This document shows positions 2,702 to 47,730 of a stretch of DNA of 64,000 bases, piece by piece (position 1 is the stretch's first letter; every line of letters starts with the position of its first letter). Under the pieces are notes generated by a model that did no database searches, was not told the origin of the DNA, and saw only the letters and a list, made by a program, of their open reading frames with translations. Made by a program: the position numbers and the translations under genes. This stretch comes from Alphaproteobacteria bacterium (GTDB lineage: Bacteria; Pseudomonadota; Alphaproteobacteria; CAISOG01): contig JBIJBF010000003.1 of NCBI GenBank assembly GCA_044345375.1, positions 18,089 to 82,088 on the forward strand, read 5' to 3'.

Positions 2702-3844
2702 ATGTTTGAAGCATTTTTGTCGGTTTGGCAGTTCGTTGAACACTATGTGCTGCCCTTTATCGGCATTATCACGGTGTTGGTGTTTGTGCATGAATTTGGC
2801 CATTTTTGGGTGGCGCGGCTTTGTGGGGTGCGGGTTGAGACCTTTTCGATTGGCTTTGGCCGCGAAATTTTTGGCTGGAACGATCGCCACCAAACCCGCT
2901 GGAAATTCTCCATGCTGCCCTTTGGCGGCTATGTCAAAATGTTTGGCGACAGCTCAGCCAGCAGCAGCCCTGACAGCCAGTTGTTGGCGGGGATGAGCAA
3001 GGAGGATTTGGCGGTTTCCTTTCATGGCAAAAAACTGTGGCAAAAATCGCTGATCGTGTTCGCGGGGCCGGCCTTTAACTTTATCTTTGCCTGGGTGGTG
3101 CTGACCCTGATGCTGATTTTCATCGGTCAGGTGGTCACCAAGCCCTTGGTGAGTGAGGTGGTGGCCGGTTCGGCGGCGGAACAGGCGGGCATTCAGGTGG
3201 GTGATGAGATTCTCAAGCTTAACGGCCGCCGCCTGCTGCGCTTCCAGGATTTGCAGCGTGAGGTGCAGGTGGGGCTGGATGCGCCGGTTGAGCTGGAATA
3301 TCGCCGCGGAAGCGAGATTTTGGTAAAAACCGTGACCCCCCAATTAAGTGAGCTGGAAGACAATTTTGGCAACAAACAAAAGATTGGTTTGCTGGGTTTG
3401 CGCGCCAATGCGGTGGATGTGGTGCCGATTGCGGCGGCGGATGCGCCATCCCAGGCTGCCTATGAGATTTACCGCCTGTCGGCCAACACCCTGACCGCGA
3501 TTGGTCAGATTATTCGCGGCAGCCGATCGGCCAAGGATTTGGGCGGGCCGCTGCGCATCGCCCAGATGTCGGGGGATTACGCGACCGTCAGCCTAGATCA
3601 GCTGCTGTATTTCCTGGTGCTGCTGTCGTGCAATTTGGGGCTGATCAACCTGTTCCCGCTGCCAGGCTTAGACGGCGGTCATTTGCTGTTTTATATCGTT
3701 GAGGCGGTTCGGGGCAGGGCGATGGCGCTAAAGGTTCAGGAGTACAGCATGATGGTGGGGATGGGGCTGATTATCTGCCTGATGCTTTTTGTGACCTATA
3801 ACGATCTGCGGATGTTTAAAATTCTTGATTTCGTTGGTCTTTAG
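2702..3844 (+). CDS. rseP: RIP zinc metalloprotease RseP (site-2 protease, PDZ domain)
   Basis: HEFGHFWVARLCGV zincin motif near the N-terminus, a central PDZ-like region and a C-terminal LDGGHLLF motif. Conserved position ahead of bamA. Confidence 0.85.
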   Translation: MFEAFLSVWQFVEHYVLPFIGIITVLVFVHEFGHFWVARLCGVRVETFSIGFGREIFGWNDRHQTRWKFSMLPFGGYVKMFGDSSASSSPDSQLLAGMSKEDLAVSFHGKKLWQKSLIVFAGPAFNFIFAWVVLTLMLIFIGQVVTKPLVSEVVAGSAAEQAGIQVGDEILKLNGRRLLRFQDLQREVQVGLDAPVELEYRRGSEILVKTVTPQLSELEDNFGNKQKIGLLGLRANAVDVVPIAAADAPSQAAYEIYRLSANTLTAIGQIIRGSRSAKDLGGPLRIAQMSGDYATVSLDQLLYFLVLLSCNLGLINLFPLPGLDGGHLLFYIVEAVRGRAMALKVQEYSMMVGMGLIICLMLFVTYNDLRMFKILDFVGL

Positions 3845-3860: not shown

Positions 3861-6155
3861 ATGAAAGCTTTTTCTCTCTTCCGCGTCCTGCTGCCTGTGG
3901 CGCTGTATTTTTCTCTGCTTGCGCCGCTTTATGCCGCGGATGGCGATGCGCCGCAGGCTTTGCGCACGGTGCAGGTCAGCGGCAATGAGCGGGTGGAATC
4001 GGCCACCATCACCACCTATGTCGCGATCAAGCCTGGTGATATCTATGATCCCGTGAAAGCCGACGAAAGCGTGAAAAATCTTTACGCGACCGGCCTGTTC
4101 AGCGATGTGTCGATCCGTCAGAACGCGGATGCGTTGTTCATTGTGGTGCGTGAAAATCCCTTGGTCAATCAGGTGGTGTTTGAGGGCAACAAGAGCCTGA
4201 GCACCGAAAGCCTGCAAAAGGAAATCTCCCTGAAACCCCGTGGGGTGTTTACCCCCGCGCAGGCGCAGGCGGATGCACAGCGGCTGGGTCAATTGTATAT
4301 TCGTGATGGCCGTTACGCCGCCAAAATTGTGCCCAAAACCATCGCCAAAGATCAAAACCGGGTGGATGTGGTGTTTGAGGTGGATGAGGGCAAGCCAACC
4401 TATATCCAAACCATTCAGTTCTCAGGCAACAAGGTTTTCAGCAACAGCACCTTGAAGGAGGTGGTGATGAGCCGGGAAACGGCCTGGTACCGCTTTTTGT
4501 CCACCAGCGACAGCTATGACCCCAACCGCTTGAGCTATGATCAGGAGTTGCTGACCAAATTTTATCAGCAGAATGGCTATGCGGCGGTTACCGTTGGCGC
4601 GCCGATTGCTGAGCTGACGCCAGCGCAGGATGGCTTTTTGGTAACCTTTCCGTTGGTTGAGGGGCCGCGCTATCAATTCGGCAAGATTGATTTGCAGCTG
4701 GCGATCCCTGAGGTGTCGGCGGATCAGCTGCGCCCCCTGATCAAGCTGAACAGCGGCGATTGGTACAACGCGAAGGATGTGGATGCGGTGGTGGTGGCGA
4801 TTGGCGACAAATTGGGCAGCCTTGGTTACGCGCTGGCCGATGTGGAGCCGCAGACTGAGCTGGATCCGGTGAAGCTGACGGTGGCGTTGAATTTCGTGGT
4901 AAAGCCATCGCCCAAGGTTTTTGTGGAATCGATCACCGTGCGGGGCAATACCCGCACCTCGGATGAGGTGGTGCGCCGCGAATTTCGTCTGGCGGAGGGC
5001 GACGCCTTTAACACCGCCAAATTGAAACGGTCGCGCGAACGGGTGAAAAACCTGAACTTCTTTGAAAAGGTGGATGTCAACACCCTGCCCGGCAGCGCGC
5101 CAGATCGCGCCAAAATTGAGGTGGATGTTGCCGAAAAATCCACCGGTTCGATCAATTTGGGGGCAGGCTACTCCACCTCTGAACAGCTATTGGCCAATTT
5201 TAGCGTGGGCGAGAAAAATCTGTTGGGGGAGGGCAAGGATTTGCGTTTGGCCACCCAGCTGTCGACCAAACGCCAGGAATACAATCTTAGCTACACCGAG
5301 CCGTATTTCTTGGATCGCAACATGACCGGCGGCTTTGACCTGTTCCGCACCACCAGCGATTACCGTCAGGAAAGCTCGTACAAGGAAACCCAGACGGGCT
5401 TGGGCCTGCGCACCAGTTATGAAATCGACGAACGCTGGTCGCAGCAGTTGCGCTACCGTGTTTCGCAAAGCGAAGTGCGTGACGTTACCGATACCGCGTC
5501 GCTGTATATCCAAGATTTAAAGGGCACCTATATCACCTCAGAGGTCGGTCAATCGCTGTTGTATGACCGTCGGGATAACCGTATTCAGCCAACCAGCGGC
5601 TATTTTGCCAAGCTAAGCAACGACTTGGCGGGGGTTGGCGGCAATGTCAACTACCTGCGCAACAAGCTTGAGGCGACCGACTATCAGCAAATCACCGATG
5701 GGGTGGTGCTGGCGATCGGGGCTGAGGGGGGGGCAATTTTTGGCTTGGATGGTGATGTGCGCATTCCTGACCGCTTTTTCCTAGGTGGCCAAAGCTTTCC
5801 TGGCTTTCGTTCCGCCGGTTTGGGCCCAAGAGATACGGGCAGTGATAACGGCTTGAACGAGGCACTTGGCGGCAACTACTACTATTTGGGGCGCAGCGAT
5901 CTGGGCTTTCCGTTGGGCTTGCCCAGCGATTTTGATCTGCGCGGGCATTTGTTTGGGGTGGCAGGAACCCTGACCAGCGTGGATGAAAAAAGCGCGACCA
6001 TTCGCGATGATGGCTCTTTACGAGCATCGGTTGGGATTGGTATAGCTTGGGAATCGCCCTTTGGTCCGATCCGTGTGGATTATGCCAAGGCGTTGGTCAA
6101 AGAAAATTTTGACCGCACCGAAAATTTCTTATTTAACTTTGGAACGCAATTTTAA
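3861..6155 (+). CDS. bamA: Outer membrane protein assembly factor BamA
   Basis: 764 aa with a signal peptide and POTRA-like repeats, ending in the FNFGTQF aromatic C-terminus typical of Omp85. Conserved rseP-bamA-skp order. Confidence 0.9.
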   Translation: MKAFSLFRVLLPVALYFSLLAPLYAADGDAPQALRTVQVSGNERVESATITTYVAIKPGDIYDPVKADESVKNLYATGLFSDVSIRQNADALFIVVRENPLVNQVVFEGNKSLSTESLQKEISLKPRGVFTPAQAQADAQRLGQLYIRDGRYAAKIVPKTIAKDQNRVDVVFEVDEGKPTYIQTIQFSGNKVFSNSTLKEVVMSRETAWYRFLSTSDSYDPNRLSYDQELLTKFYQQNGYAAVTVGAPIAELTPAQDGFLVTFPLVEGPRYQFGKIDLQLAIPEVSADQLRPLIKLNSGDWYNAKDVDAVVVAIGDKLGSLGYALADVEPQTELDPVKLTVALNFVVKPSPKVFVESITVRGNTRTSDEVVRREFRLAEGDAFNTAKLKRSRERVKNLNFFEKVDVNTLPGSAPDRAKIEVDVAEKSTGSINLGAGYSTSEQLLANFSVGEKNLLGEGKDLRLATQLSTKRQEYNLSYTEPYFLDRNMTGGFDLFRTTSDYRQESSYKETQTGLGLRTSYEIDERWSQQLRYRVSQSEVRDVTDTASLYIQDLKGTYITSEVGQSLLYDRRDNRIQPTSGYFAKLSNDLAGVGGNVNYLRNKLEATDYQQITDGVVLAIGAEGGAIFGLDGDVRIPDRFFLGGQSFPGFRSAGLGPRDTGSDNGLNEALGGNYYYLGRSDLGFPLGLPSDFDLRGHLFGVAGTLTSVDEKSATIRDDGSLRASVGIGIAWESPFGPIRVDYAKALVKENFDRTENFLFNFGTQF

Positions 6156-6769
6156 TGAAAAAACTTTTCTTCTTTCTGGCCGCCATTCTGGCGCTGCAGG
6201 CTGCAACTCTATCGGCGTGGGCTGAGGACACTTCATCTTCTGCCAGCGCCGCTGCGTCTGGTCAACATGCCCTAAAATTGGCGGTGGTGGATGTGCAGGA
6301 GGTGTTGCGAGCCTCTAAGGCTGCGACCAAGTGGCGTGAGCAGTTGGAGGCGCAAAAAACGGCTCTGCAGAAAGACCTGTCGAAGGAGGAGTCTGGCTTA
6401 AGGGATCAGGAGCAGGAACTGGCCGGCAAGCGCAGCGTGCTAAAGGCTGAGGCTTTTGAGCAAAAGCGCAAGGAATTTCAGGAGAAAGTTGCCGCTTTCC
6501 AGAAAAAGGTTCAGGACAAAAGCCGCGATTTGGATCAAAAATTTGCCAATGGCAACAACCAGGTGCGCAAAGCCATGCTGGAATCCGTGGCCGAAATCTC
6601 TGAGAAAAACGGATTTTCGATGGTGTTTTCCAGGGCTGACCTGCTGATTTTTGACAAAACCTTGGATGTCACCGATCAGGTGGTTAAGGCGATCGATCAA
6701 AAGCTGCCTGAAATTAAGCCAGAAAGCACGACGACAGCGGCTCCTGCATCCGCGCCTGCTAAGAAATAG
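6155..6769 (+). CDS. skp: OmpH/Skp family periplasmic chaperone
   Basis: Signal peptide followed by a long coiled-coil rich in K/E/Q. Located directly after bamA. Confidence 0.75.
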   Translation: MKKLFFFLAAILALQAATLSAWAEDTSSSASAAASGQHALKLAVVDVQEVLRASKAATKWREQLEAQKTALQKDLSKEESGLRDQEQELAGKRSVLKAEAFEQKRKEFQEKVAAFQKKVQDKSRDLDQKFANGNNQVRKAMLESVAEISEKNGFSMVFSRADLLIFDKTLDVTDQVVKAIDQKLPEIKPESTTTAAPASAPAKK

Positions 6770-9247: not shown

Positions 9248-9300
9248 TAGCGGAGTAGAATTGTCATCCTTCTAATTCCCCTGCTATATCTGCCGCTAAG

Positions 9301-9350
9301 AACCACCCCGTCAGGCTTCGCCTGCCACCCCTCTGCAAGAGGGGAATTTT
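9301..9350 (+). repeat. REP-like palindromic intergenic element, copy 1
   Basis: accaccccgtcaggcttcgcctgccacccctctgcaagaggggaatttt contains two short hairpins (caggc-ttc-gcctg and cccctc...gagggg). Near-identical copies occur at 13087, 29357, 29536 and 47632. Confidence 0.8.
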
Positions 9351-13013: not shown

Positions 13014-13063
13014 CTCCCCCCCCCTGTTCTGCCGTTAAAAGCAGGGCAGGGGGGTTTTTTTAA
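13014..13063 (+). terminator. Rho-independent terminator of the 612-aa gene
   Basis: cccccccctgttctgc-cgttaaaa-gcagggcagggggg GC-rich hairpin followed by a run of seven T. Confidence 0.75.
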
Positions 13064-13086
13064 AAGGGTCTATATTTGTGATGGAC

Positions 13087-13136
13087 AACCACCCCGTCAG
13101 GCTGCGCCTGCCACCCCTCCGCGGGAGGGGAATAGG
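13087..13136 (+). repeat. REP-like element, copy 2
   Basis: accaccccgtcaggctgcgcctgccacccctccgcgggaggggaataggg, sitting between convergent genes. Confidence 0.8.
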
Positions 13137-13168
13137 GTTGAACCCGCCCAAGGAGGAGAATTAAAAAC

Positions 13169-26280: not shown

Positions 26281-26293
26281 GGGGGGTGCGCCG

Positions 26294-27848: not shown

Positions 27849-29264
27849 TTAGGTCAGCCATTTGAGCGCGAAGGTGGCAAAGCCCAAAAAGGCCATAAAG
27901 CCGACCACATCGGTAACGGTGGTCACGAAAACGCCGCTGGAGATGGCCGGATCGATTTTAAAACGATCAAGGGTCAGGGGGATCAGGGTGCCCGCCAGCG
28001 AGGCCGCCAGCAGGTTGACGACCAGCGCCGATCCCATCACCACGCCAATCACCCAATTTTGGTACCATAGGCCGCTGAACAGGCCGATTAACAGGCCAAG
28101 GCTAAGGCCATTCAGCAGGGCGATCAGCAATTCCTTGACCACAAAGCGCCCCCGTGCGCCCTCACCCAACATCCGGGTCGCCATCCCCCGCACCGCCACC
28201 GCCAGGGTTTGGGTGCCGGCATTGCCGCCCATGCTGGCGACAATCGGCATCAGCACGGCCAGCGCGATCACCTGTTGCAGGGTGTCTTGGAAAAAGGAGA
28301 TTACCCAGCTGGCCAACATCGCGGTGGCCAGATTGATGCTGAGCCAGACAAAGCGGGGGCGGGTGGTGGCCAGCAGGCCGGCGGAAAGATCGCTGTCCCC
28401 CGCATGCGCCAAGCGCAACACATCCTCGGTCGCCTCAGCCTGCAAGACATACAGCACATCATCCACGGTGATCACCCCGATCAGGCGGCCATCGCTGTCA
28501 ATCACTGAGGCGCTGACCAGGCTGTAGCGGCGAAAGATTTGCGCCACCTCCTCCTGATCTGTGTTGACCCCGATCGAATGAAATTCTGGCCGCATCACAT
28601 CGCGCAGCAGGTTGCTGGGCTTGGCGCGCATCAGCTGGGCCAGGGGCAGAACGCCGACCGGCTGATGCGCGGGGTTGACCACGCTGATTTCATAAAACTG
28701 TTCGGGCATTTCCGCCCAGTCTTGCAGCGCCAACCGTGCCTGGCCTATCGTCCAATGTTCCGGCATCGCCATCACCTCGCGCCGCATCAGCCGCCCCGCG
28801 CTGTCCTCAGGGAAGGTCAGGCCTTCTCGCAGGGTTAGCTGCTCCCAGGCGGGCAGGGCGTCCAACACCGCCTGCTGCTCCTCCTCATCCAGATTTTCTA
28901 GCAGGTTAAGCGCATCATCCGATGCCATCTGCTTCAGCGCATCGGCGATCTCGGTGGGGGTCAGATCCTCCAACACATCATCGCGCACGCTGTCGTCCAG
29001 CTCAGCCAGCACATCGGGGTCCAGATCCTCGCCCAACAATTCGATCAGGGCATGCCGGTTTCTGTGCCGCAGCTGGGTTAGCACCAGGGCGATGTCGGGC
29101 GCTGACAGGTCATGCAGCAGCGCCAACACCACCTCAGCCTCCTCATCCTCCAGCGCGATTTCCACCTGTTTCCAAAGCGGGGGTAGGGGGTCGGCGTGCG
29201 GATGCTCCTCAACCACTGGGGTGGGGTTTTCGGGCTCTAAAAGGTGGGGATCGGTGATGGTCAT
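27849..29264 (-). CDS. mgtE: Magnesium transporter MgtE
   Basis: N-terminal MgtE-N domain, tandem CBS domains and five C-terminal transmembrane helices (MgtE channel architecture). Confidence 0.85.
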   Translation of the reverse strand: MTITDPHLLEPENPTPVVEEHPHADPLPPLWKQVEIALEDEEAEVVLALLHDLSAPDIALVLTQLRHRNRHALIELLGEDLDPDVLAELDDSVRDDVLEDLTPTEIADALKQMASDDALNLLENLDEEEQQAVLDALPAWEQLTLREGLTFPEDSAGRLMRREVMAMPEHWTIGQARLALQDWAEMPEQFYEISVVNPAHQPVGVLPLAQLMRAKPSNLLRDVMRPEFHSIGVNTDQEEVAQIFRRYSLVSASVIDSDGRLIGVITVDDVLYVLQAEATEDVLRLAHAGDSDLSAGLLATTRPRFVWLSINLATAMLASWVISFFQDTLQQVIALAVLMPIVASMGGNAGTQTLAVAVRGMATRMLGEGARGRFVVKELLIALLNGLSLGLLIGLFSGLWYQNWVIGVVMGSALVVNLLAASLAGTLIPLTLDRFKIDPAISSGVFVTTVTDVVGFMAFLGFATFALKWLT

Positions 29265-29356
29265 GGCATCAACCCTTGCTGCAGAAGACTAGGTGGTTTC
29301 TTTGTCGGTTACTTCTGCGGAATGGTCAAGCGATAGGGTGGGGGTGTGTCTGTTAC

Positions 29357-29590
29357 TTAATTCCCCTCCCGCGGAGGGGTGGCAGGCGAAGCCTGACGGG
29401 GTGGTTGTTTTAAAAGTTTGTCAGGCGCAGCCTGCCTCCTTTAGATATTTGTCAGGCACAGCCTGACGGGGTGGTTCTTATCTTGGTGGTGTGATGCGCT
29501 GCAGGCAGCACCATGTTTGAATTGTTTGTTACAAGGACCACCCCGCCCTTCGGGCACCCCTCCGCAGGAGGGGAATTTAAGGGGAATTAA
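29357..29590. repeat. Cluster of REP-like elements: one inverted full copy, two partial inverted copies and a variant direct copy
   Basis: 29357-29406 is the reverse complement of the REP consensus. 29418-29440 and 29449-29477 are partial copies. 29536-29577 is a variant in which gcccttcgggc replaces the central hairpin. The cluster lies between the mgtE start and the rnpB 3' end. Confidence 0.75.
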
Positions 29591-29597
29591 GAATTTA

Positions 29598-30028
29598 AGA
29601 TGTCGGTTGGCCTGTAAGCTGGGTTTTGTCTGGGCGGTGAACCGCCCTGGATGGCCATTCATCTTGGGGTGGAATTGCTTCCACACCTCTAGCAACCGAC
29701 CCGCAGAGCCATCGTGGAAACCCGATTGAGTCCCCGAAAAACGGGGGCTCGCGCCCTGCCTATTTGGTTTTGCTCCGGATGGGGTTTACCGCGGCCACGA
29801 TCGGTTGCCCAATCGGCGGTGCGCTCTTACCGCACCTTTTCACCCTTACCGCCCAAGGGTCGAAACCCAAGGACGGCGGTATCGTTTCTGTGGCACTTTC
29901 CCTTGAATTGGCGTTTTCAGCCAACCCCGCTGGGCGTTACCCAGCATCCTGCTTCCATGGAGCCCAGACTTTCCTCTCACCAGCCGAAGCTGAGCAAGCG
30001 GCCATCCAGCCAACCGACGCCGCCATCG
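29598..30028 (-). ncRNA. rnpB: RNase P RNA, bacterial type A
   Basis: The minus strand carries GAGGAAAGUCUGGGCUCC (P4 5' strand), GGUAAGGGUGAAAAGGUGCGGUAAGAGCGCACC (the P10/11-12 consensus), GGUAAACCCCAUCCGGAGCAA and ACAAAACCCAGCUUA (P4 3' strand). P1 is formed by GUCGGUUGGC near 30019 pairing with GCCAACCGAC near 29605. Ends are estimated to within about 5 nt. Confidence 0.9.
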
Positions 30029-30066
30029 TGGCCGATCGGCCTGTTTTGTCAAGAGTGGGGGGACGG

Positions 30067-30831
30067 TTATTCGGCAAAAACCGCGTTGGTGTAGACATCC
30101 TGCACGTCGTCATGCTCATCGAGAGCATCCAGCAGTTTCAGGGCGCTGGCGGTGGCATCTGCGGTCACATCGTTGGAGGTAAGGGGGGTTGGGGTCAGGG
30201 GCAGCCAGACCAATTTGGCGCTGGCCGGCGTGCCAAACTTTGCCTCAAGCCCATCGCGCAGGGTGGCCAGATCATCGGGGGCGCAAAAGGCCGACAGCAT
30301 CGCCATCCCTTCCTCATCCTCCTCCTCAGCCTGCACATCATCCGCGCCCAATTCCAACGCCAGCTCGAACAATTGATCGAATGAGATGCGGGCGGGATAG
30401 GTGATTTGGCCAGCGCGTTTGAACATAAAGGCCACGCTGTTTCCCTCACCCAAGCTGCCGCCGTTTTTGTTGAAAATGGTGCGGACGTCGCTGGCGGTGC
30501 GGTTGCGGTTGTCGGTTGAGCCCTCAACAATAATCGCGATGCCGCCGGGGCCGTAGCCCTCATACCGCACCTCATCATACACCACGCCGCCCTCCTCCCC
30601 ACTGCCCTTACGGATGGCGCGTTCCAGGTTGTCTTTGGGCATGTTGGCCTCACGCGCTGCGGTGATCGCCGCTCTTAGCCGTGGGTTGGTGGCGGGATCG
30701 GCGTTGGATCGCGCCGCCACCATCACCTCGCGCACCAGTTTGGAGAACAGGCGGCTGCGCTTGGCATCCTGCGCGCCCTTGCGGTACATGATGTTTTTAA
30801 ACTGGGAATGGCCAGCCATGATTGCCTCCAA
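30067..30831 (-). CDS. yebC: YebC/PmpR-family transcriptional regulator (DUF28)
   Basis: MAGHSQFKNIMYRKGAQDAKRSRLFSKL is the conserved N-terminus of the family; 254 aa. Confidence 0.9.
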   Translation of the reverse strand: MEAIMAGHSQFKNIMYRKGAQDAKRSRLFSKLVREVMVAARSNADPATNPRLRAAITAAREANMPKDNLERAIRKGSGEEGGVVYDEVRYEGYGPGGIAIIVEGSTDNRNRTASDVRTIFNKNGGSLGEGNSVAFMFKRAGQITYPARISFDQLFELALELGADDVQAEEEDEEGMAMLSAFCAPDDLATLRDGLEAKFGTPASAKLVWLPLTPTPLTSNDVTADATASALKLLDALDEHDDVQDVYTNAVFAE

Positions 30832-31705: not shown

Positions 31706-32179
31706 ATGACCAAAGATAGCAAAATTAAAAAAAATCAAACAAAAACGACTGAAGTTAAGCCAAAGCAAAAAACGCCAAAACCATTGCAGGTTGCAAAAGA
31801 AAATACTGTACCACCTGATCCTGATGTTGACCATGGTGGCAGCCAGCTTAGCCAAGAACTGAACGAATTGTTGGTTGCGGTGGCCAAGGGGCAGCCGTTA
31901 TTGGCGGGTGATAAGATGGGCGAGGTGGCGACGGTGTATCCAACCCTGGACCAACGATTAAAGGTGATGACGATGCTGTTAAAACAACAGGAGCAGGAAA
32001 TGGGCGACATGGTAGAAAAGGATGGCGGTGATGGACGAAAAAAAGCCAAAGCCGCGAAAATCCGCGCGGGCTATAGCGCCGATGAACTTCGCGAACTGCT
32101 CAGCCGCCATTTGGCTGAGCTGTCAACCAAAAAGCCGGCGGGCAAAACTGCTGGCCAGCCTGAGCGATCAGGAGGTTGA
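31706..32179 (+). CDS. Lys-rich small protein, possible small terminase or DNA-binding subunit; first gene of the phage-derived cluster
   Basis: 157 aa. K-rich N-terminus (MTKDSKIKKNQTKTTEVKPKQKTPKP) and a central coiled-coil. The 3' 158 nt overlap the terminase ORF out of frame, and an A7 run sits at the junction. Confidence 0.4.
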   Translation: MTKDSKIKKNQTKTTEVKPKQKTPKPLQVAKENTVPPDPDVDHGGSQLSQELNELLVAVAKGQPLLAGDKMGEVATVYPTLDQRLKVMTMLLKQQEQEMGDMVEKDGGDGRKKAKAAKIRAGYSADELRELLSRHLAELSTKKPAGKTAGQPERSGG

Positions 32180-33395
32180 ACGGCTGTATTACAGCTGGGC
32201 CTTTTGGGCGCGCCCTGAACAGCTGCCGCCGGCCGGTTTGTGGCGGGTGTGGCTGATTCTGGCGGGACGGGGCTGGGGCAAAACCCGAACCGGCGCCGAA
32301 TGGGTTAGCTGGCAGGTGCAAACCGGGCAGGCCAGCCGTATCGCCCTGGTCGCCGCAACGCTGCATGAGGCGCGCAGCGTGATGGTTGAGGGGGCCAGCG
32401 GCTTGTTAAGCTGCAGCCCGCCGTGGAACCGCCCGCGCTATGAGCCATCGAAACGGCTGCTGACCTGGCCCAACGGCGCGGTGGCGCAGTGTTTTGGCGC
32501 TGAGGAGCCGGACAGCCTGCGCGGACCGCAGTTTGATGCGGCCTGGTGCGACGAATTGGCCAAATGGCCCCGTCAGGGTGCCTGGGATCAGCTGATGTTC
32601 GGGCTGCGTTTGGGGCAAAACCCGCAGGTGGTGGCAACGACCACGCCCCAGCCCGTACCGCTGATCGAAAGCCTGGCAAAAAAGGCTGAGGTGGTGGTGA
32701 CAAGGGGCAGAACGCTGGACAACCGTGCCAATCTGGCGGCGGGATTTTTGAGCGAATTGGAGCAAACCTATGCCGGCACTTGGCTGGCTGCGCAGGAGTT
32801 GGAGGGCGAGCTGCTTAGCGATGCGCCAGACACCCTGTGGCCCGCTAAGATTTTGGCGGAGTCGGTGATCGAGCCGGCGTCTGCGCCGCCGATGGTGAAA
32901 ACGCTGCTGGCGATCGACCCTGCCGTAACCAGCCATAGCAGCAGCGACGAAACCGGGCTGGTGGTGGTGGGATTGGGGGAGGATGGGGTGTTTTATGTGC
33001 TGCAAGATGCCAGCGACCGGCTGCGGCCAGAGGTGCTGGTGGAACGGGTGGCGGCGCTGGTTGCCCTGCACAGCATTGGTCAGGTGGTGGTTGAGGTCAA
33101 TCAGGGCGGCGACTGGCTGCTGGAGGCCTTGAATAGTGCAACCTTGGATGCCGTGGTCCAGCCGGTGCGCGCGGTTCAGGACAAATGGACGCGGGCGGAA
33201 CCGGTGGCCATGCTGTATGCGCAGGGTCGGGTGAAGCATGTGGGCCGTCTGCCAACGCTGGAGGCGCAGCTGCGGGCCTGTCGTCGTGGGACTAGGAGCG
33301 GAGGAATGGATCGGGTGGATGCGCTGGTTTGGGCGATTCGCAGTTTGAAACAGGCCAGCGTTAAGCAGCGCGGGTTTGCGGTTCGGGTGGTTTAG
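32022..33395 (+). CDS. Phage terminase large subunit (GTA g2-like TerL)
   Basis: LLASLSDQEVERLYYSWAFWARPEQLPP...WRVWLILAGRGWGKTRTGAEW is the N-terminal signature shared by alphaproteobacterial GTA-type large terminases. An ATPase Walker region and a C-terminal nuclease-like DxD pattern are present. The exact start is uncertain (32022 or 32082). Confidence 0.8.
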   Translation: MAVMDEKKPKPRKSARAIAPMNFANCSAAIWLSCQPKSRRAKLLASLSDQEVERLYYSWAFWARPEQLPPAGLWRVWLILAGRGWGKTRTGAEWVSWQVQTGQASRIALVAATLHEARSVMVEGASGLLSCSPPWNRPRYEPSKRLLTWPNGAVAQCFGAEEPDSLRGPQFDAAWCDELAKWPRQGAWDQLMFGLRLGQNPQVVATTTPQPVPLIESLAKKAEVVVTRGRTLDNRANLAAGFLSELEQTYAGTWLAAQELEGELLSDAPDTLWPAKILAESVIEPASAPPMVKTLLAIDPAVTSHSSSDETGLVVVGLGEDGVFYVLQDASDRLRPEVLVERVAALVALHSIGQVVVEVNQGGDWLLEALNSATLDAVVQPVRAVQDKWTRAEPVAMLYAQGRVKHVGRLPTLEAQLRACRRGTRSGGMDRVDALVWAIRSLKQASVKQRGFAVRVV

Positions 33396-47606: not shown

Positions 47607-47631
47607 ACCGATGTTTCGGCTTGTCCGAAAG

Positions 47632-47730
47632 GACCACCCCGTCAGGCTTCGCCTGCCACCCCTCCGCAAGAGGAGGGGAATTAAGAGGGCCGTGCAGGGG
47701 TGCCCGAAGCGGGACCACCCCTGCAGTTAA
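47632..47730 (+). repeat. REP-like element, copy 6, plus an adjacent partial variant
   Basis: gaccaccccgtcaggcttcgcctgccacccctccgcaagaggaggggaattaag, followed by gggaccacccctgcag. Lies between the convergent obg and glnA. Confidence 0.8.

Follow-up and report, generated by a model that had tools for sequence, protein, structure and literature searches.

By organisation, the closest known system to the repeats described here is that of the repetitive extragenic palindromes (REPs), with their composite forms, the bacterial interspersed mosaic elements (BIMEs) and the REP doublets forming hairpins (REPINs), and the REP-associated tyrosine transposases (RAYTs) (PMC3116915). REP palindromes have a conserved GTAG or CGTC tetranucleotide head, as Di Nocera 2013 is cited in PMC12306157. 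Two further systems invite comparison: the miniature inverted-repeat transposable elements (MITEs) and palindrome-associated transposable elements (PATEs), including those derived from IS200/IS605, and the Vsr-like nucleases that serve as homing endonucleases in the I-Bth0305I family (PMC3239194, PMC2677866). Here we analysed a dispersed element of about 47 nucleotides (nt) that lies, as an inverted doublet, between the RNase P RNA gene (rnpB) and mgtE in a 64-kb stretch of alphaproteobacterial DNA (the window, by which we mean the whole stretch), and that elsewhere brackets genes of the DUF559 family. We propose that the rnpB doublet is a gene-less passenger of a DUF559-associated, REP/BIME-like family of double hairpins that crosses phyla, and we put the probability of this reading at roughly 70%. 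The doublet most likely rides along as a passenger behind rnpB, tolerated by a permissive spacer and fixed in the clade. The finding of rnpB is routine annotation, and the repeat behind it is the notable part.

The element resembles the REP/BIME/REPIN and RAYT system in consisting of short extragenic hairpin repeats with many copies per genome and two types that alternate in orientation, in having an enzyme gene bracketed by inverted copies, and in that gene-less copies are far commoner than gene-carrying ones. On the other hand, it has two hairpins and an ATTCCCC head, its enzyme is a DUF559 protein of the PD-(D/E)xK type and not of the HUH/Y1 type, its distribution is cross-phylum instead of lineage-specific, and the module of gene and repeats can sit in-frame inside other genes.

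The element reads ATTCCCCTCC-loop-GGAGGGG-TG-[hairpin 2]-GGGGTGGT. Hairpin 1 (CCCCTCC/GGAGGGG) and the tail GGGGTGGT are fixed in sequence and hairpin 2 is kept in structure only; the loops vary freely, and two types, A and B, are told apart by consistent differences in hairpin 2. Of 141 copies, 123 have ATTCCCCTCC as their head, and the half of hairpin 1 that lay outside the search pattern (ATT-CCCCTCC with a 2-3-nt loop) is present in 127 of the 141. Directly outside ATT...GGT, the information content drops to about 0-0.5 bit at both ends. Since the search patterns set hairpin 1 in both of our scans, its invariance in the scanned samples is not evidence of conservation. A scan free of hairpin 2, which yielded 79 copies on 54 viral-contig stretches, provided a sample unbiased for that hairpin. 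These copies held 56 distinct hairpin-2 sequences, and in an alignment of 36 representatives three of the four pairs showed double-sided changes (26 cells), with 94% of cells paired. The observed covariation score was reached by none of 500 shuffles, and slid-partner controls collapsed. We found no description of the element in the literature; the coverage of this search was incomplete and the novelty of the element is provisional.

Two other kinds of repeat were considered and rejected. An integron attC site was discarded because no consistent R''/R' core sequences flank the copies, and a CRISPR array because the copies lack regular unique spacers and because the tandem element arrays on one gammaproteobacterial chromosome (L047, 3509-4144 and 6378-6705), with a period of 73-75 nt, have conserved linkers (TTCTTCTTTCTAAGGGAATGAAAG...).

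In the window, the nest between rnpB and mgtE (29357-29591) holds a pair of full copies that point in opposite directions, together with a single partial copy and a degenerate fragment of hairpin 2. A covariance model, R1, built only from copies in other organisms, detects an A-type copy on the plus strand (29357-29410, 52.7 bits; ATTCCCCTCC-CGC-GGAGGGG-TG-GCAGGC-GAA-GCCTGAC-GGGGTGGT) and a B-type copy on the minus strand (29532-29579, 64.3 bits, E 1e-16; ATTCCCCTCC-TGC-GGAGGGG-TG-CCC-GAA-GGGC-GGGGTGGT). The B copy is in the sense orientation of rnpB and begins 20 nt past its 3' end. The two copies are mutually inverted, so that their tails face each other and their heads point away (inverted repeat I1, 23 nt, 96% complementary). 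Between the B copy and rnpB lies an extra element-head fragment, AGGGGAATTAAG (29580-29591, plus strand), which is the exact complement of 29356-29367 (inverted repeat I5, 12 nt, 100%). The partial copy (29444-29480, plus strand, 13.5 bits) and the degenerate fragment (29420-29439) are both held in a 70-nt strain-specific block inside the doublet (29407-29476, plus strand), recognised by comparison with relatives and by the direct repeats D1 and D2. This block consists of two units of about 31 nt, each with a hairpin-2-like stem-loop (one degenerate, at 29420-29439; the other at 29451-29467, followed by a tail at 29468-29476), and has at its two ends a direct repeat made of the tail and hairpin 2.

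Comparison with relatives simplifies the history of the nest. The 70-nt block is present in the window and in L001, a contig of the same organism that carries the window's MgtE sequence, and is missing from the related loci L119 and L121, whose MgtE proteins are 94% and 99% identical, respectively. The spacer of L119 is about 97% identical minus exactly 70 nt, so that the doublet interior measures 51-61 nt there and 131-133 nt in the window (the value depends on the boundaries chosen). The A copy is also found in L119, L121, L001 and L002, and the B copy in L119 and L121. The preliminary description of this region had counted four full or partial REP copies in both orientations; their coordinates and number stand, while the label REP (discussed below) and the idea of four independent copies do not. 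Because the block that holds both partials is missing from L119 and L121, the four copies reduce to one doublet plus a duplication: judged by these relatives, the nest is one inverted A/B doublet with a recent strain-level internal duplication of 70 nt, and not the product of four insertions. Its RNA is predicted to form a single long hairpin (-120 kcal/mol, z = -8), and at E<=10 a search of Rfam with 29230-29640 returned only noise-level miRNA matches.

Some further irregularities were seen around the nest. Just outside the A-copy head, in the 5' region of mgtE (about 29340-29346), the window differs from both L119 and L121 by a 7-nt indel, ACACACC. In L121 (1-160, compared with 29570-29640 of the window), something other than rnpB lies to the left of the B copy and homology stops exactly at the element head, which reflects either a rearrangement at the repeat or a chimera of metagenome assembly. 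Two contigs of the window's organism, L001 and L002, break off within the nest or close to it.

The gene linked to the element in other genomes encodes a DUF559 protein (PF04480 in Pfam) of about 130 amino acids (aa) with a Vsr-like PD-(D/E)xK fold; its match to NF007294 was below the cut-off. A search of the PDB sequences at E<=1 found only 3HRL, an unannotated 'endonuclease-like protein', and PADLOC annotation of defence systems gave nothing meaningful for DUF559. A guess that the gene encodes the TnpA of IS200/IS605, made from its 'YKSL' N-terminus, was rejected, since Pfam gives DUF559. The linkage emerged from 170 element-bearing loci (116 genome and 54 viral loci, about 1.36 Mb), in which 772 open reading frames (ORFs) lying at most 200 nt from a copy were clustered. 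The recurrent ones were DUF559 (15 loci) and the type I restriction-modification (R-M) genes hsdS/hsdR (about eight); no transposase, RAYT or Y1 family was recurrent among them.

A canonical A-gene-B unit of about 440-600 bp was found in nine loci (L011, L017, L035, L044, L060, L068, L081, L114 and L252). The A copy is on the same strand as the ORF and the B copy is inverted; the ORF starts 3-25 nt past the A copy, extends into the B copy and usually ends at the B head. The DUF559 subfamily has more than 1,400 clusters at 90% identity, of which we examined the best 120 homologs; these share 64-80% identity and come from Chlorobi, Chloroflexi, Armatimonadota and Proteobacteria. In 111 of the 120, the protein ends in the element-encoded tail ...HPALxGTPPxEGN, often tandemly repeated, and the variable residues of the tails fall on the two element loops.

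The doublet of the window, A(+)...B(-) with tails inward, has the layout of these nine DUF559 units. More generally, in the 31 tails-inward pairs the interior is either short, 11-133 nt (17 pairs, with that of the window among them), or long, 360-715 nt (14 pairs). Most of the longer interiors that were mapped hold DUF559, and the shorter ones are gene-less. By type, 21 of these pairs are A+B, 10 are B+B and none is A+A; heads-inward pairs number 32, with a modal linker of about 30 nt. This layout of paired copies, with two variants, inverted alternation and characteristic spacers, makes the organisation BIME/REPIN-like. The copies in the window are best read, by analogy with the relation of REP/REPIN to RAYT or of MITEs to their parents, as gene-less relatives of the A-DUF559-B module.

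The module can also be found inside genes. In L081, hsdR carries the whole of it (1581-2173) in-frame, between its HSDR_N and SWI2/SNF2 domains. Seven HsdR homologs have an element-DUF559-element linker of 213-297 aa at this place, versus 44-51 aa in uninterrupted proteins, a contrast that marks the module as a discrete insertion. The type I R subunits with an in-frame module, L081 together with P0276, P0309, P0323, P0327, P0330 and P0348, come from several lineages; the element copies that flank the HsdR modules are translated in different frames, and across the family some hsdR genes have the module and others lack it. Furthermore, in L035, L063, L078, L022 and L096 copies and DUF559 units often lie directly beside the type I R-M gene hsdS. 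The upstream ORFs end in '...KKGLMQQLFP', and the Methylase_S domain was confirmed for L035. This adjacency could reflect a target preference or a build-up in defence islands.

A published survey of programmed inversions reported that 'DUF559 domain-containing protein' is enriched among predicted targets, with an odds ratio of 14.3 (PMC9881135). Since genes bracketed by inverted repeats would yield a programmed-inversion signal, the inverted copies that bracket and overlap DUF559 genes may account for this enrichment.

With respect to distribution, an exact 32-mer of the element was scanned against one genome per species and was found, among the matches listed, in more than 116 genome stretches from more than 10 phyla, as well as on viral contigs. 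The hosts include Planctomycetia, Chlorobiaceae, Cyanobacteria, Oscillospiraceae, Deinococcales, Fibrobacteres, Nitrospinota, Calditrichaceae, Roseiflexaceae and Gamma-, Beta- and Deltaproteobacteria, and the matches comprise complete chromosomes and a Vibrio isolate. The GC content of the host loci ranges from 34 to 67%, which argues against contamination. Close relatives of the window's organism are enriched in the element, with 12 copies in about 46 kb (seven loci) versus none in about 400 kb of unselected loci. On the chromosomes of the sponge symbiont 'Porisulfidus', the element is embedded in a longer genome-specific repeat.

The parallels with the other two systems are partial. As in MITEs and PATEs, gene-less terminal inverted pairs mirror a gene-carrying version and fall into two size classes. 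The element differs from them in that its parent carries DUF559 (PF04480) and no recognised transposase, in that no target-site duplication is demonstrable, and in that its two ends are unlike each other (A versus B hairpin 2). With the I-Bth0305I family, it shares a small Vsr-like PD-(D/E)xK nuclease in a selfish insertion that sometimes lies inside a host gene. In contrast to that family, the DUF559 units are free-standing or read through in-frame, with no intron or intein context; the nuclease is bracketed by hairpin repeats that also exist as many gene-less copies; and the two proteins have no sequence similarity detectable by the search of PDB sequences, which finds only 3HRL.

These comparisons suggest a possible mechanism, in which the DUF559 nuclease would recognise or nick the hairpins and repair or gene conversion would then spread and homogenise both the module and the gene-less doublets. 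A stronger version, which we regard as tentative and would not expect to hold on present evidence, is that the element and DUF559 together form a previously undescribed selfish system that crosses phyla, an analogue of REP/RAYT built on a Vsr-like PD-(D/E)xK nuclease. In such a system, the nuclease would recognise the fixed hairpin 1 and the tail, and hairpin 2 would serve as a structural spacer. A nick, followed by repair or gene conversion, would copy the module to gene-less doublets and to new sites, and copying of this kind would keep the stems identical while the loops drift. The stop-free, Pro/Gly-rich frames of the element would allow in-frame insertion into hsdR and other genes without destroying the host gene. 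If true, this would give the large DUF559 family its first substrate and biological role.

The physical coupling of the element to one DUF559 subfamily provides a testable candidate substrate for a very large family of no known function, and it suggests a second, non-HUH route to a genome architecture of REP/BIME type. The element also explains why some annotated proteins carry spurious '...TPPxEGN' or 'PPxEGW' peptide tails and why metagenome contigs break or turn chimeric at its copies.

R1 finds exactly five full copies in the window, all intergenic, which amounts to about one copy per 13 kb in this genome; pattern matches number five, versus 0.0-0.1 expected from shuffles. Besides the doublet, there are three solo A-type copies, each on the minus strand in the spacer of a convergent gene pair. 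The first (9297-9350, 44.5 bits) lies between an acyltransferase-like gene and iPGM, starts 11 nt past the iPGM stop codon and is identical in the related loci L202-L204. The second lies at 13083-13136 (48.4 bits); in a comparison with its L203 ortholog, all 39 positions of the stems and tail were the same, and differences were found at 3 of 7 positions in the loops and 28 of 156 in the flanks (stems and tail versus flanks, Fisher p=0.0017). The third (47628-47684, 43 bits) lies between obg and glnA and is also present in L205 and L206.

Fragments of the element were noticed beside these solo copies. Element-head fragments, AATTCCCCT and GGAGGAGAATT, occur at 9274-9282 and about 13150-13165, the one at about 13.15 kb being absent in L202 and L203, and a hairpin-2-like palindrome (CAGGGGTG-CCCGAAGCGGG-ACCACCCCTG) occupies about 47696-47724, next to the third copy. 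The fragments beside each solo copy suggest decayed partners of former doublets.

Several observations weigh against the view that the rnpB doublet belongs to a DUF559-driven family. A tblastn search of the 64-kb window, nest included, with 17 DUF559 ORFs found neither a DUF559 gene nor a remnant and matched only element-encoded peptides. Most copies are gene-less, the gene lying beside a copy at 15 of the 116 loci from genomes and at 1 of the 54 viral ones, and DUF559 could therefore be a frequent guest of pre-existing repeats instead of their driver. We know of no biochemical activity demonstrated for DUF559, and to our knowledge a PD-(D/E)xK nuclease alone is not a known transposase. Because the genome sample was drawn with the exact A-type 32-mer, the frequency of the A type and the exact identity of copies in that sample are so by construction. 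In the available relatives, including L202-L206, the three solo copies and the doublet are all fixed; no filled-versus-empty site was found among them for any copy of this genome, and no target-site duplication can consequently be defined. Finally, the changes between orthologous copies fit purifying selection on the stems and the tail, which a host function would account for at least as well as selfish DNA.

Such a host function is the rival explanation that survives best, although we consider it unlikely. The copies would be attenuators, terminators or exonuclease barriers, the doublet would be the terminator or 3' stabiliser of rnpB, and the link with DUF559 would be secondary. REP and BIME elements stabilise upstream RNA and attenuate transcription, and rnpB itself offers a precedent. 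In Escherichia coli K-12 (NC_000913.3, 3269846-3270238; L261:647-1039), 3.5 tandem units of 113 bp, matching at 96%, overlap the rnpB 3' end, and each unit carries a terminator-like hairpin; Reed and Altman are said to have first described these repeats, in 1983. Both loci have hairpin-bearing repeats starting from the rnpB 3' end, but the E. coli units are a local tandem with canonical terminators of hairpin plus T-run, and they are unrelated in sequence to the dispersed element.

At the locus studied here, we found no canonical minus-strand terminator between rnpB and mgtE (29200-30150 scanned), so the doublet would be transcribed; as a transcript, it could form one long hairpin and act as a secondary 3' barrier or processing site for rnpB transcripts. 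The placement of the sense copy 20 nt past the rnpB 3' end is conserved in L119, orthologs show constraint on the stems, and a very stable structure is predicted. Each of the four full copies on the minus strand of the window starts 11-51 nt past the 3' end of a minus-strand gene, and in two of the three convergent spacers with copies (those of iPGM and of obg-glnA) no canonical terminator was found. However, the third copy, at 13083-13136, already has a canonical intrinsic terminator directly alongside (13019-13054, plus strand, 14-bp stem, T7 run). Neither hairpin is followed by a U-tract in either orientation, GGGGUGGUCCUUG following in sense and AAUUAAG in antisense on direct reading. In the 170 loci, copies are oriented at random with respect to the 3' ends of neighbouring genes (18 sense-only versus 17 antisense-only, with a crude gene caller), copies also occur at gene 5' ends, inside ORFs and in tandem arrays, and the same 47 nt across phyla would be unexpected of a host terminator. 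The suggestion in the preliminary description that the repeats might terminate rnpB thus agrees with the lack of a canonical terminator and with the sense copy nearby, is opposed by the missing U-tract and the unbiased orientation, and is unproven.

A second alternative, which we judge improbable, is that the repeats are cis-regulatory or structural RNA of the DUF559 mRNA, or translated linkers, and that the gene-less copies are decayed remnants of DUF559 genes. A 5'/3' panhandle would form between the inverted A and B copies, hairpin 1 pairs CCUCC with GGAGG in the manner of an anti-Shine-Dalgarno and a Shine-Dalgarno sequence, and the close fit of the ORF between its copies, the one dominant tail frame in 111 of 120 homologs and the in-frame read-through in HsdR would all agree with such a role. 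Against it, the interiors of gene-less doublets are only 11-133 nt and hold no DUF559 remnant, and solo copies far outnumber genes. In addition, the translated frames vary with loop length and with the protein (SPPPEGW, FPSFGGV, TPPxEGN); because changes in loop length put different loci in different reading frames, it is the nucleotide sequence that is conserved.

Slightly less probable still, and largely refuted, is the reading of the preliminary description itself, in which the copies are classical REPs mobilised by a RAYT, with structured RNA genes such as rnpB as preferred insertion targets. The copies are short imperfect palindromes, extragenic and multi-copy (five full copies in 64 kb), and they form REPIN-like inverted doublets. 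On the other hand, their head starts with ATTCCCC, and not with GTAG or CGTC; a CGTC does turn up in hairpin 2 of the A type when the reverse strand is read, but only by chance, and the B type lacks it. No RAYT (Y1) recurs beside the repeats in the 170 loci, which are loci and not whole genomes, and the genes that do recur there are DUF559 and hsdS/hsdR. The same 32-mer is common to more than 10 phyla and is thus not specific to a species or genus. Since head motif, enzyme and lineage specificity all fail, the family is not one of classical REPs. As to structured RNA genes as targets, the conserved rnpB P4 motif is absent from the 170 other element-bearing loci, and about 5 of the 20 transfer RNA genes in element loci lie at most 150 nt from a copy, which is unremarkable for intergenic elements. 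Nor does rnpB adjoin yebC, its upstream neighbour in the window, in any of 80 distant yebC loci (among the matches listed, at most 61% YebC identity), and the position of rnpB between yebC and mgtE is, as far as these genomes tell, lineage-specific. The proposed target preference was therefore not borne out.

Finally, that the cross-phylum matches are an artefact of contaminated or mis-binned metagenome-assembled genomes (MAGs), or of assembly chimeras at repeats, is almost certainly wrong: MAGs make up most of the matches, the L121 homology that breaks exactly at an element head may be chimeric and the organism's own contigs L001 and L002 end inside the nest, but complete chromosomes and an isolate genome are among the matches, the flanks are unrelated and genome-specific, the hosts span 34-67% GC, the element is embedded in genome-specific extended repeat units such as those of Porisulfidus, and the linked DUF559 proteins are annotated from many taxa.

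The gene in front of the doublet had been read from its motifs as an RNase P RNA on the minus strand, without a plausible ORF, and this was confirmed. The Rfam model RF00010 (RNaseP_bact_a) matches 29599-30017 on the minus strand with 268.4 bits (E 1.8e-86, gathering score 100), over model positions 1-367 of 367 and untruncated. It is the sole gathering-level Rfam match in the whole window, and among the ORFs of the window none that is credible covers this interval. The ortholog in L119 scores 268.2 bits with the same synteny. The P1 helix pairs 30006-30017 with 29603-29614, and P4 is formed by GAGGAAAGUCUGGGCUCC (29959-29976) with ACAAAACCCAGCUUAC (29614-29629). The consensus is GUCCGGG/CCCGGCUU, from which one P4 pair departs on both sides in the RF00010 alignment, with U-A in place of C-G. 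As this double change is compensatory, the P4 pseudoknot between the GAGGAAAGUCCGGG and ACAGAACCCGGCUUA regions is retained, with GUCUGGG pairing with CCCAGCUU both in the alignment and on direct reading. From sequence and predicted fold, 29599-30017 is thus an ordinary class-A RNase P RNA gene, rnpB, of an uncultured alphaproteobacterium. It shares the P1-P4 pseudoknot core, the universal motifs and the full-length match with RNAs such as the M1 RNA of E. coli and differs from the class in nothing notable; its 419 nt result from ordinary helix extensions.

A candidate rnpB promoter was read directly from the sequence at 30024-30052 on the minus strand. It has a perfect -35 box, TTGACA (30047-30052), located 30 nt upstream of the mature rnpB 5' end, a spacer of 16-17 nt and a weak -10 box, CACGAT/ACGATG (30024-30030). 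Because of this weak -10 box, a consensus promoter scan did not report it. If used, we infer, it would place the transcription start about at the mature 5' end.

Flanking rnpB on its own strand are mgtE (27849-29264, minus strand; MgtE_N, CBS and MgtE domains in Pfam), phoH and ybeY downstream, and a yebC/TACO1-family gene (30067-30831, minus strand, identified with Pfam) and trcR upstream. The order trcR-yebC-rnpB-doublet-mgtE is also found in L119. The closest named relative of the MgtE protein is from a 'Holosporaceae bacterium' MAG (72% identity), and metagenome relatives reach 94-99%.

Downstream of ybeY (26281-26293), the relatives diverge: the window has a convergent M23 peptidase gene, L119 an IS630-like helix-turn-helix gene (5524-6200) and L121 an A-type copy of the element (3321-3484). 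In L119 and L121, the breaks in homology downstream of ybeY and upstream of the doublet fall at element heads without a clean empty site, and could be due to rearrangement or to assembly chimeras. On the other side of rnpB, beside trcR, a gene for a large terminase subunit (Terminase_6N/6C; 32022-33395, plus strand) opens a run of same-strand ORFs, which looks like a head-packaging cluster of a prophage or of a gene transfer agent.

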